From Escherichia phage 215Ecol030PP, in sequence record PP328843.1: a stretch of 64,000 nt of DNA; one strand, 5' to 3'. The notes under the pieces were generated by a model. It was not told where the DNA came from. It did not search any database and was given only the letters and a program-made list of their open reading frames with translations. Shown in pieces: positions 7,197 through 8,674 of this stretch. The stretch's first letter is position 1. Each line of letters begins with the position of its first letter. The position numbers were made by a program, and so were the translations under genes.

Positions 7197-7272
7197 TGGT
7201 CGAGGCAGTAGGGATCGAACCTACGACCCAGGACTTAGAAGGTCCTTGCTCTTCCTTCTGAGCTATGCCCCG
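7197..7272 (-). tRNA. tRNA-Arg (anticodon TCT), CCA encoded
   Basis: hand-folded cloverleaf: 7-bp acceptor, D stem GCTC/GAGC, anticodon loop CTTCTAA, T-loop TTCGATC. Confidence 0.8.
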
Positions 7273-7276
7273 TAAT

Positions 7277-7352
7277 TGGGGTGACCGATGGGAGTCGAAC
7301 CCATGACTACGAGAATCACAATCTCGAGTTCTACCAACTGAACTACGGCCAC
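7277..7352 (-). tRNA. tRNA-His (anticodon GTG), CCA encoded
   Basis: hand-folded cloverleaf; anticodon loop TTGTGAT; T-arm ATGGG/CCCAT. Confidence 0.75.
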
Positions 7353-7443
7353 ATTAATACCTACTCCAACAATCAAGATGTCTTCACACGAAATTAAGAG
7401 AAGAGTGATCAGTTCAACCCCTATAATCGCGTCAAGTAGATAT

Positions 7444-7465
7444 TAATGTGACAGTTGTCACAAAT
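7444..7465. promoter_or_regulatory. perfect CRP-consensus-like palindrome TGTGA-N6-TCACA (TAATGTGACAGTTGTCACAAAT)
   Basis: both CRP half-sites and 6-bp spacing exact, A/T flanks; lies 3' of tRNA-Asn. Confidence 0.4.
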
Positions 7466-7466
7466 T

Positions 7467-7541
7467 TGGCGGACGTGATAGGATTCGAACCTATAACCAA
7501 TCGCTTAACAGGCGATCGCTCTGCCATTGAGCTACACATCC
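7467..7541 (-). tRNA. tRNA-Asn (anticodon GTT), CCA encoded
   Basis: hand-folded cloverleaf; anticodon stem ATCGC/GCGAT, loop CTGTTAA. Confidence 0.75.
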
Positions 7542-7545
7542 AAAT

Positions 7546-7632
7546 TGGTGGGGAGTGATGGAGTCGAACCACCCGAGTCGCAATGACAATGGATTTACAG
7601 TCCACACCGCTACCTCTACGGGATAACTCCCC
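7546..7632 (-). tRNA. tRNA-Tyr (anticodon GTA), type II with long variable arm, CCA encoded
   Basis: perfect 7-bp acceptor GGGGAGT/ACTCCCC; anticodon loop CTGTAAA. Confidence 0.75.
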
Positions 7633-7645
7633 TTAATTCTTAATT

Positions 7646-7720
7646 TGGTGGCCCTGGGTGGAATTGAACCACCATCTGGCGATTATGAGTCGCTTGCTTG
7701 AACCTTCCAGCTACAGGGCC
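7646..7720 (-). tRNA. tRNA with anticodon CAT (Met or lysidine-modified Ile, as T4 tRNA-Ile)
   Basis: perfect acceptor GGCCCTG/CAGGGCC, T-arm GGTGG/CCACC, anticodon loop CTCATAA. Confidence 0.75.
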
Positions 7721-7728
7721 AAATTTTC

Positions 7729-8214
7729 TTATTTTATGTAATATTTATTTAAAAACTTTCTAGCTTGAGTATGGCTAACATTTATAGCGTTTGCATAATT
7801 TTTAATAAAACCTCGTTCATCCATATTAAAATTTTCTAATATTTTTAATCGTCTAGTTATCTCATCTTGACTTAAGGTACTTGCATTATTTTTAGAAATT
7901 TTTTCTAAGGACTGTGCCGAGTGTTTTCGACCATTAAAATTAAAATTTTTAGATTTTGGAGGAAATCTAGCATTTAATCTCGCATCTTTTGTATTTTGAT
8001 TATTAGTTGCGCAATATATGTTATTTAATGAATATGGTCCTTTATCGCCGAAACGGCACATGCAGTATTCATGACCCTTTCTTCCACGCTTATCATAATT
8101 TCCCGTTGATTTCCACCAATGCAGCCATTCATCAAAAGTTAAATTCCATTCAATGTTTCTACGTATAGCAGAATTCCGCTGAGAAATATATTTTGCATAA
8201 TCTTCTTTCATCAC
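7729..8214 (-). CDS. putative HNH-family homing endonuclease embedded in the tRNA cluster (161 aa, GTG start)
   Basis: motif GHEYCMCRFGDKGPYSLNNIYCATNNQN resembles HNH core; basic C-terminal DNA-binding-like tail. Confidence 0.5.
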   Translation of the reverse strand: MMKEDYAKYISQRNSAIRRNIEWNLTFDEWLHWWKSTGNYDKRGRKGHEYCMCRFGDKGPYSLNNIYCATNNQNTKDARLNARFPPKSKNFNFNGRKHSAQSLEKISKNNASTLSQDEITRRLKILENFNMDERGFIKNYANAINVSHTQARKFLNKYYIK

Positions 8215-8258
8215 AAATTTCTCTACTTATTCAATACACTGAGCTAAATCAGCAAAAC

Positions 8259-8348
8259 TGGCGGAGGCGATAGGATTTGAACCTATGAGTCGCCGGAGCG
8301 ACTGCCGGTTTTCAAGACCGGTGCATTAAACCACTCTGCCACGCCTCC
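8259..8348 (-). tRNA. tRNA-Ser (anticodon TGA), type II, CCA encoded
   Basis: acceptor GGAGGCG/CGCCTCC; anticodon stem CCGGT/ACCGG, loop CTTGAAA; long variable arm. Confidence 0.8.
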
Positions 8349-8350
8349 AG

Positions 8351-8424
8351 TCTCCGCGGCAGGATTTGAACCTACGACATTCTGCTCCCAAAGCAGACGC
8401 TCTACCAAACTGAGCTACACGGAG
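8351..8424 (-). tRNA. tRNA-Pro (anticodon TGG), CCA not encoded; 2 nt from tRNA-Ser (dimeric precursor geometry)
   Basis: D stem GCTC/GAGC; anticodon stem TCTGC/GCAGA, loop TTTGGGA. Confidence 0.8.
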
Positions 8425-8434
8425 TAAATTAAAT

Positions 8435-8508
8435 TGGAGCGGATAATGAGAATCGAACTCACATCATCAGATTGGAAGTCTGAGGTAATACCATTATACG
8501 ATATCCGC
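8435..8508 (-). tRNA. tRNA-Gly (anticodon TCC), CCA encoded
   Basis: acceptor GCGGATA/TATCCGC; anticodon stem TCAGA/TCTGA, loop CTTCCAA. Confidence 0.8.
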
Positions 8509-8513
8509 AAATT

Positions 8514-8600
8514 TGGTGCGAGAAGTGGGACTCGAACCCACAAGGAAATCATTCCGCAGCATTTTAAGTGCTGTGCCTTTACCAATTTGGCCATTCTCGC
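8514..8600 (-). tRNA. tRNA-Leu (anticodon TAA), type II, CCA encoded
   Basis: acceptor GCGAGAA/TTCTCGC; anticodon stem CAGCA/TGCTG, loop CTTAAAA. Confidence 0.8.
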
Positions 8601-8601
8601 G

Positions 8602-8674
8602 CTGGGAATAAAGGACTCGAACCTTTGCATCCTGGAATCAAAATCCAGTGCCTTACCAACTTGGCTAATTCCCA
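8602..8674 (-). tRNA. tRNA-Gln (anticodon TTG), CCA not encoded; 1 nt from tRNA-Leu (dimeric precursor geometry)
   Basis: acceptor TGGGAAT/ATTCCCA; anticodon stem CTGGA/TCCAG, loop TTTTGAT. Confidence 0.8.

Follow-up and report, generated by a model that had tools for sequence, protein, structure and literature searches.

A probable mosaic version of the T-even tRNA operon in Escherichia phage 215Ecol030PP

The tRNA region of T-even phages

Work on the transfer RNA (tRNA) region of T-even phages dates back to the 1970s, and its sequence is available from hundreds of phages. The subject of this analysis is a cluster of ten tRNA genes at positions 7197-8674 of a 64,000-nucleotide (nt) stretch of DNA from Escherichia phage 215Ecol030PP (PP328843.1), referred to in its full length as the window. 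The locus is very probably the T-even (Tequatrovirus) tRNA operon, in a mosaic form that the databases already contain, and hence another allele of this region. Annotations of the same ten genes in this order exist for public phage genomes, and the cluster adds nothing new in this respect. It illustrates what appears to be an endonuclease-driven mosaic tRNA content, visible in the stump of a tRNA-Thr gene, a middle section of the T2 type, and an inserted tRNA-His cassette.

Among the closest described systems, phage T4 (NC_000866) carries eight tRNA genes, arranged with their neighbors in the order Gln, Leu, Gly, Pro, Ser, Thr, Ile, segB, Arg, rnaD, and rnaC. T2L (AJ880101; PMC2330249, 2008) possesses nine of the ten tRNA genes of the window in the same order, together with trna.1, rnaD, and rnaC, but lacks tRNA-His. 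For T6 (NC_054907; PMC13096335), seven tRNA genes are known, in the order Gln, Leu, Gly, Thr, CAU, and Tyr, then segB, and Arg; the last of these is known from PMC13096335 and lies outside the stretch compared here (469-968 of the cluster locus), in which no Pro, Ser, Asn, or His genes are annotated. A homing endonuclease gene adjoins the tRNA genes of T6, and its CAU gene is of the T4 type and has an encoded CCA. The content of the T6 cluster shows the variability of the locus among the classical T-even phages.

The exchange of tRNA genes in this region has an experimental precedent. T4 SegB cuts the 3' end of every tRNA gene of T2L at a consensus containing GGTTCRANTCC, with the tRNA-Asn gene as a preferred cleavage site, and in mixed infections it drives the replacement of the T2L segment that contains Met, Tyr, Asn, Arg, trna.1, and trna.2 (PMC2330249).

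A mosaic of T4-like and T2-like genes

ARAGORN, run on the full 64 kilobases (kb), identified ten minus-strand tRNA genes (the other genes and RNA elements located below are on this strand as well) and called no further ones; a tRNA-Thr gene was not called anywhere in the window. All ten genes reach the gathering threshold of the Rfam model RF00005 (29 bits), nine of them with scores of 59.9-74.1 bits and tRNA-Tyr with 30.2 bits, and a direct reading of the gene sequences shows intact acceptor stems throughout. A preliminary description, made from the letters of the sequence, had placed the start and the end of the cluster exactly, and its ten hand-derived anticodons are all matched by ARAGORN. 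ARAGORN and Rfam agree on all ten genes, and neither tool failed on Tyr, Asn, and His or gave other anticodons. The statements that these three genes are missing from T4, whose annotation has none of them, and that the tRNA-Thr of T4 is absent here were likewise correct.

The assignment to the T-even tRNA operon follows from the genomic position, the spacing of the Gln-Leu and Pro-Ser pairs, and the presence of rnaD and rnaC after Arg. As in T4, the cluster is located between trna.2-4/ipI and e.8, and tRNA-Arg is followed by rnaD and then rnaC. Positions 9259-8238 of the window align to the T4 stretch from trna.3 to Ser at 92%, and positions 7242-6848 and 6325-6200 align to the stretch from Arg to e.8 at 90-93%. 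Only one nucleotide (C) separates tRNA-Gln from tRNA-Leu (...CCCAG-C-GCGAGAA), and two (CT) separate tRNA-Pro from tRNA-Ser (...GGAGA-CT-GGAGGCG); both junctions are the same as in T4, which supports the abutting pairs with T4 dimer geometry recognized in the preliminary description. The accompanying claim that the pairs have no encoded CCA applies to the 5' members, Gln and Pro, which are the only genes of the cluster without it, but not to Leu (...CGC-A-CCA) and Ser (...CCTCC-G-CCA). A full CCA is encoded by Leu, Ser, Gly, CAU, Tyr, Asn, His, and Arg. Judged by the geometry of T4, the Gln-Leu and Pro-Ser pairs are predicted to be dimeric precursors.

Gene-by-gene comparison identifies five orthologs of T4 genes, namely, Gly and Ser (100% identity each), Leu (99%), Gln (89%), and Pro (84%), rather than the six that the title of the preliminary description had announced or the seven listed in its text. 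The CAU and Arg genes, which had been counted as T4-like, are isoacceptors of the T2 type, with 64% identity to their T4 counterparts and 99-100% to those of T2L; also the Tyr and Asn genes are T2L genes. T4 differs further by the presence of tRNA-Thr and of another Ile (CAU) and another Arg gene (64% each), by the lack of Tyr, Asn, and His, and by a GIY-YIG gene, segB, in place of the open reading frame (ORF) of the family phrog_16521 that interrupts the cluster of the window. Moreover, the Ser and Ile genes of T4 have no encoded CCA, whereas Ser and CAU in the window do. T2L is 96.7% identical over positions 8717-7464 of the window and has in common with it the CCA of tRNA-Ser, the Thr stump, and the T2-type tRNA-Arg. 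It differs in the absence of the leader-plus-His cassette, the Asn and Arg genes being spaced by 4 nt, in an additional ORF (trna.2) between Arg and rnaD that is missing from the window, and in its Gln and Pro genes, which represent another allele (89% and 84%).

The stump of the tRNA-Thr gene (8238-8253) corresponds to nucleotides 1-16 of the T4 gene (GCTGATTTAGCTCAGT). Homology to T4 continues for 21 nt beyond the end of tRNA-Ser, that is, through the spacer and these 16 nt, and then breaks. The same 16-nt stretch is present in T2L with one mismatch. The stump indicates that a tRNA-Thr gene was formerly located at this position and was lost by replacement.

A megablast search of the GenBank phages with a 2-kb query yielded 1122 records, mostly of Escherichia and Shigella T-even phages. 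In phage REP1 (OQ174500), which covers 100% of the query at 97.5%, ten tRNA genes occur in the same order and orientation, with the ORF after Ser. The two loci are syntenic and 97.5% identical over the 1.86-kb unit, and seven of the ten genes show no sequence difference. The differences amount to 45 substitutions and one gap, and Leu, Pro, and Tyr deviate by a few bases. An arrangement like that of REP1 is found also in vB_Eco_F26, ECO78, VIPECOOM01-03, and OE5505 (Tequatrovirus). Phage sutha has ten tRNA genes as well, among them Thr, but His is missing.

The ORF at the site of the lost gene

The ORF at 7729-8214 (160-161 amino acids) occupies the site of Thr-Ile in T4 and is homologous to trna.1 of T2L. 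The Thr stump, which is identical to the 5' end of the T4 tRNA-Thr gene, lies directly upstream. The ORF belongs to phrog_16521, and a member of the same family is present inside the tRNA cluster of a Klebsiella phage. Searches of Pfam, NCBIfam, and the PDB sequences gave no match. The homologs have in common an N-terminal domain of 75 residues, and some of them carry NUMOD3 or sigma70_r4 DNA-binding modules; some GenBank records already label the ORF as a homing endonuclease. A GIY-YIG domain was not matched in Pfam or NCBIfam, no BLAST alignment to the segB locus of T4 was obtained, and an invariant catalytic histidine is not visible. Tentatively, an HNH-like domain is assigned to the N terminus of the product and a helix-turn-helix to its C terminus, and the ORF is read as a putative and probable free-standing homing endonuclease.

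Codon demand, defense, and cassette exchange

Codon usage was compared between 76 nonoverlapping ORFs of the window (19,603 codons; 35.9% G+C) and 42 annotated genes from a 50-kb stretch of Escherichia coli K-12 (14,748 codons). The cognate codons of the seven tRNAs with UNN or CAU anticodons are all enriched in the phage: AGA 10.4-fold (tRNA-Arg UCU), AUA 6.2-fold (CAU tRNA), GGA 4.0-fold (tRNA-Gly UCC), UCA 3.9-fold (tRNA-Ser UGA), UUA 3.1-fold (tRNA-Leu UAA), CCA 1.8-fold (tRNA-Pro UGG), and CAA 1.6-fold (tRNA-Gln UUG). The enrichment of AGA, AUA, GGA, and UCA is the highest among the 61 codons, with ACA following in fifth place (3.7-fold). Together, the seven codons account for 153 per 1000 in plus-strand ORFs, which were taken as the late structural genes, versus 125 per 1000 in minus-strand ORFs, and a higher frequency of cognate codons in late genes is known also from T4. 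Tyrosine and asparagine residues are 1.6-fold more common in the phage and are encoded mostly by UAU and AAU, which are read through wobble by GUA and GUU. The preliminary description had all anticodons reading A- or U-ending codons; this is imprecise, because GUA, GUU, and GUG form Watson-Crick pairs with C-ending codons and wobble pairs with U-ending ones.

One might ascribe the entire set to codon usage, each tRNA being kept for codons that the AT-rich phage overuses relative to the supply of its host. The 1.6- to 10-fold enrichment of the seven cognate codons, their higher frequency in the presumed late ORFs, and the abundance of tyrosine and asparagine all agree with this explanation. However, His codons are only half as frequent as in E. 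coli, and ACA is strongly enriched, yet its tRNA, Thr (UGU), is precisely the one that is missing, with a stump that documents its former presence. Moreover, relatives of presumably similar codon usage differ in their content (eight tRNA genes in T4, seven in T6, nine in T2, and ten including Thr in sutha), which makes adaptation to codon usage doubtful as the sole explanation. Given the low demand for His and the loss of Thr, codon supply accounts for most of the set, but it explains neither why tRNA-His is present nor why tRNA-Thr is absent. The adaptation proposed in the preliminary description is supported by codon usage with regard to Tyr, Asn, and the seven UNN/CAU tRNAs; it is not supported with regard to these two.

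The three additional tRNAs, Tyr, Asn, and His, all have GUN anticodons, and tRNAs of this type are queuosine modified and cut by colicin E5. This would fit a counter-defense kit, in which phage tRNAs replace or out-titrate host tRNAs that are cut by Septu, retron-Eco7, PARIS, or anticodon nucleases of the PrrC type; such a function, which has been published as a general hypothesis (PMC10264068), would account for a tRNA-His beyond codon demand. Septu cleaves tRNA-Tyr, and T6 evades it through SegB-driven amplification of the phage's tRNA-Tyr gene, which is expressed, matches that of the window in 85 of 87 positions, and rescues the phage from Septu when amplified or overexpressed (PMC13096335). 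Deletion of the tRNA-rich region renders T6 more sensitive to Septu, and T4, which has no tRNA-Tyr, cannot escape (PMC13096335). The tRNAs of T5 are reported to neutralize retron-Eco7 and PARIS (PMC11464382). On the other hand, Septu cuts also the tRNA-Tyr of T6, so that protection is a matter of dose rather than resistance (PMC13096335), and the anticodon loop of the tRNA-His in the window (UUGUGAU) is the same as in E. coli hisR and gives no sign of evasion. A counter-defense function also does not predict the strong codon signal of the seven UNN/CAU tRNAs and is at best a possible explanation of the cluster as a whole.

It is improbable that Tyr, Asn, His, and the T2-type Arg and CAU genes are selfish hitchhikers, that is, passengers of homing-endonuclease cassettes that are of little benefit to the phage. 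The region is nonessential and is swapped wholesale in crosses (PMC2330249), and tRNA genes are significantly co-located with homologs of segB (PMC13096335), both of which would be expected of passengers. If so, a tRNA-His without an encoded G-1 or a tRNA-Tyr with an odd D-arm and a score of merely 30.2 bits may be nonfunctional. By contrast, a phenotype of the T6 tRNA-Tyr has been measured (PMC13096335), the Asn and Tyr genes are 100% and 99% identical to those of T2L, the cloverleaf of tRNA-His is maintained by compensatory changes in the T-stem across genera, and none of the ten acceptor stems is disrupted.

The reading preferred here combines codon supply, as tested on this sequence, with defense insurance and cassette exchange, both of which are drawn by analogy from close relatives. 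As in the established processing route of T4 tRNAs, polycistronic precursors would be cut by host RNase P and trimmed at their 3' ends to yield the individual tRNAs, and Gln and Pro alone would require the CCA-adding enzyme of the host. Host tRNAs for the overused codons of a genome with 36% G+C would be supplemented by the seven UNN/CAU tRNAs and probably also by Tyr and Asn, and at least some of the phage tRNAs would serve as spares when defense systems cleave those of the host, as has been shown for the near-identical tRNA-Tyr of T6 against Septu. Cassette exchange among co-infecting relatives, more than codon demand, would determine which tRNAs are present. Homing endonucleases, which cut tRNA genes in their T-arm-coding 3' ends, would drive this exchange, and the recurring ...CCA-AATT spacers would facilitate it. 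Such an exchange would account for the Thr stump, the T2-type middle section, and the insertion of a leader plus tRNA-His of ~195 nt.

Several points weigh against this combined reading. The tRNA region of T-even phages is dispensable for phage development (PMC2330249). His codons amount to 13.6 per 1000 versus 26.0 in E. coli, so that demand fails to explain tRNA-His, whose role as a decoder is not assured without an encoded G-1. The Rfam score of tRNA-Tyr is marginal with respect to the cutoff, and a scan for consensus promoters gave no excess over shuffled sequences and did not locate the promoters of the cluster.

A structured leader upstream of tRNA-His

In comparison to T2L, the window contains a clean insertion of ~195 nt between Asn and Arg (7273-7466), which comprises a 114-nt spacer and tRNA-His. 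Its junctions are GCCAAAT|TTG and CCCAAT|TACGG versus GCCAAAT|ACGAGG in T2L, and both are located inside the recurrent ...CCA-AAT(T) spacer. The tRNA-His gene (GUG; 7277-7352; Rfam, 65.1 bits) has the anticodon ...ATTGTGATT..., a 3' end of ...CGGTCAC-C-CCA, and thus the GUG and C73 of a bacterial tRNA-His together with an encoded CCA. What it lacks is the encoded G-1 that is present in E. coli hisR. Position -1 is a T in the gene of the window (7277-7353 with this position) and in all 11 other phage tRNA-His genes compared, including that of mycobacteriophage Bxz1. G-1, which pairs with C73, is the major identity element for the bacterial histidyl-tRNA synthetase (HisRS), is normally required by the E. 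coli enzyme, and is normally encoded in the gene (PMC9976931). A literature search for phage tRNA-His without G-1 found nothing, and the papers searched contain no description of the leader. The T-stem of tRNA-His shows compensatory changes across genera (ATGGG/CCCAT, GACGG/CCGTC, and GCGGA/TCCGC), which shows that selection acts on it.

The last 95 nt of the spacer (7353-7447) form a conserved structured leader of tRNA-His that is present in a single copy. Its folding z-scores against shuffled sequences are -4.4 and -3.6. A terminal helix of 14 base pairs (bp), P1, is formed by the two ends of the leader and closes a three-way junction of P2, an invariant GAA, and P3; P1 ends exactly at position -1 of tRNA-His and would abut the acceptor stem in the folded precursor. 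In an RNAalifold analysis of seven distinct sequences, 96.6% of the cells are paired versus 36-50% in slid controls, and both partners have changed in six pairs, including three of P1 and two of P3; with only seven sequences, this covariation is suggestive but not conclusive. Six G-U pairs are possible only on the tRNA-sense strand, and a covariance model of the leader (R1) scores 111.6 bits on this strand, and the antisense strand of the window yields no match (<20 bits in the loci). The leader has no match in Rfam.

The leader-plus-His cassette occurs at ≥95% identity in ~190 phage records and at 83-92% in members of the genera Karamvirus, Jiaodavirus, and Gelderlandvirus, where it is placed between tRNA-Gln and tRNA-Ser. 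In total, no fewer than six genera of T4-like phages have the leader together with tRNA-His; in phage sutha, the spacer has been kept and tRNA-His has been lost. The large clusters of Karamvirus, Jiaodavirus, Gelderlandvirus, and Moonvirus that carry the cassette (represented by Pet-CM3-4, KPV15, Melville, and Merlin) have 13-15 tRNA genes annotated in the stretches compared, and the one that was checked for ORFs contains a member of the phrog_16521 family. The interior of the leader varies among them; Merlin (Moonvirus) retains only P1 and tRNA-His, and P1 is likewise kept in MP1 (Gualtarvirus), with interiors that are unrelated. One Aeromonas phage has a different hairpin, which also ends at position -1 of tRNA-His. 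A pattern scan of IMG/VR for variants of the leader returned seven loci, of which two are false positives and the others duplicate types present in GenBank.

It is conceivable, though rather unlikely, that the His cassette goes beyond a tRNA gene and constitutes an undescribed functional RNA unit. RNase P might release the leader as a small stable RNA, or the leader might serve as a processing signal that controls how the 5' end of a tRNA-His without G-1 is formed. In the latter case, these phages would have solved the problem of histidine identity in a way of their own. That a tRNA-His without G-1 is always preceded by a covarying helix bears on the question of how histidine identity arises when G-1 is not encoded.

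Several other candidates for the leader were rejected. A sigma-70 promoter (TTGACG) is not compatible with the hexamer of Jiaodavirus (TTCAAC) and the lack of a -10 element. The three-way junction and the GAA fit a hammerhead ribozyme, but the CUGANGA strand is missing and J1/2 consists of a single nucleotide. A degenerate tRNA or a relative of rnaC or rnaD would not explain that ARAGORN and Rfam are blank and that R1 matches only the leader in the window. An inverted repeat at the DNA level is disfavored by the G-U pairs that are restricted to the sense strand and by the scores of R1.

A perfect hairpin (GTGAC-AACT-GTCAC; 7447-7462) is located between tRNA-Asn and the leader. It is present also in sutha, whereas Karamvirus conserves only its 3' half.

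Individual tRNA genes

The T4-like part of the cluster begins with tRNA-Gln (UUG; 8602-8674; 67.4 bits; 89% identity to T4), the 5' member of the Gln-Leu pair, in which only the first C of the CCA is encoded (at 8601; ARAGORN span, 8601-8674). It is followed by tRNA-Leu (UAA; 8514-8600; 64 bits), a type II tRNA with an encoded CCA that is identical to T4 in 86 of 87 positions, and by tRNA-Gly (UCC; 8435-8508; 65.8 bits), which also encodes CCA and is identical in 74 of 74. In tRNA-Pro (UGG; 8351-8424; 67.5 bits; 84% to T4), the 5' member of the second pair, the gene is followed by CT and then by Ser, leaving no complete CCA (ARAGORN span, 8350-8424).

The Gln and Pro alleles are unlike those of both T4 and T2L. 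The anticodon stem of tRNA-Gln is wholly replaced with respect to these phages, and loop positions 32 and 38 are changed from C to U. In tRNA-Pro, there are compensated changes in the anticodon stem, the T stem, and the acceptor stem.

The type II tRNA-Ser (UGA; 8259-8348; 62.6 bits) is identical to that of T4 in all 87 positions of its body but has a CCA at 8259-8261, as does T2L, whereas the T4 gene ends with ...CCTCC-G-TAA. The tRNA-Ser of T4 requires the addition of CCA. Since CCA is encoded in the window, its addition should not be needed here, and the dependence of tRNA-Ser on host 3' trimming and CCA addition should differ from the classic case of T4.

The CAU gene (7646-7720; 59.9 bits; 64% identity to T4 tRNA-Ile) has an encoded CCA and is identical to a T2L gene that is annotated as "tRNA-Met"; its counterpart in REP1 is named Ile. 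In blastn searches of complete E. coli genomes, the best matches were genes annotated as tRNA-Ile in 5,424 of 5,426 genomes, with up to 81.6% identity across the full 75 nt, and an aligned example has the start of the acceptor stem (GGCCC) and the whole anticodon arm GCGACTCATAATCGC in common with the phage gene. The acceptor stem (GGCCCTG/CAGGGCC) contains C4-G69 and C5-G68, the TilS determinants that separate tRNA-Ile2 from tRNA-Met. We conclude from these sequence features that the CAU tRNA is of the AUA-reading Ile2 type, for which modification to lysidine is predicted; of the two identities that the preliminary description had left open, Ile2 is retained and Met is dropped. The D-arm of the gene is unusual (GCTG-GAAGGTTC-AAGC), with a G instead of the near-universal A at position 14 if conventional numbering is applied, and is the same in the identical gene of T2L.

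The remaining genes of the T2-type section all encode CCA. tRNA-Tyr (GUA; 7546-7632) is a type II tRNA with a noncanonical D-arm, which was called by ARAGORN and is identical to its homologs in T2L and T6 in 86 and 85 of 87 positions, respectively; in a permissive Rfam scan, its top match is the tRNA-Sec model, a family with a long variable arm. tRNA-Asn (GUU; 7467-7541; 74.1 bits) is identical to T2L in 75 of 75 positions. The last gene, tRNA-Arg (UCU; 7197-7272; 63.9 bits), has 99% identity to T2L and 64% to T4.

Flanking elements and extent of the unit

A candidate middle promoter of the MotA type before tRNA-Gln (TGCTTA at 8693-8698 and TAATAAT at 8675-8681) was rejected, because its -10-like element touches position +1 of tRNA-Gln and transcripts would begin within the tRNA.

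Directly after tRNA-Arg, as in T4, lies a homolog of rnaD, the small stable RNA of species 2 (7076-7195), which is identical to T4 in 103 of 119 positions. The homolog of rnaC, the small stable RNA of species 1 (6931-7069), is identical in 136 of 139 positions and carries a T-arm-like hairpin, GGTTCGAATCC. Even for T4, no role is known for either of these RNAs (PMC3014915). A strong hairpin resembling an intrinsic terminator (6857-6880), with 10 bp, seven of them G-C, and a subsequent run of T, closes the tRNA and stable RNA genes. The cluster is part of a single minus-strand unit that extends from upstream of tRNA-Gln (8674) to the terminator at 6857, beyond the limits drawn in the preliminary description.

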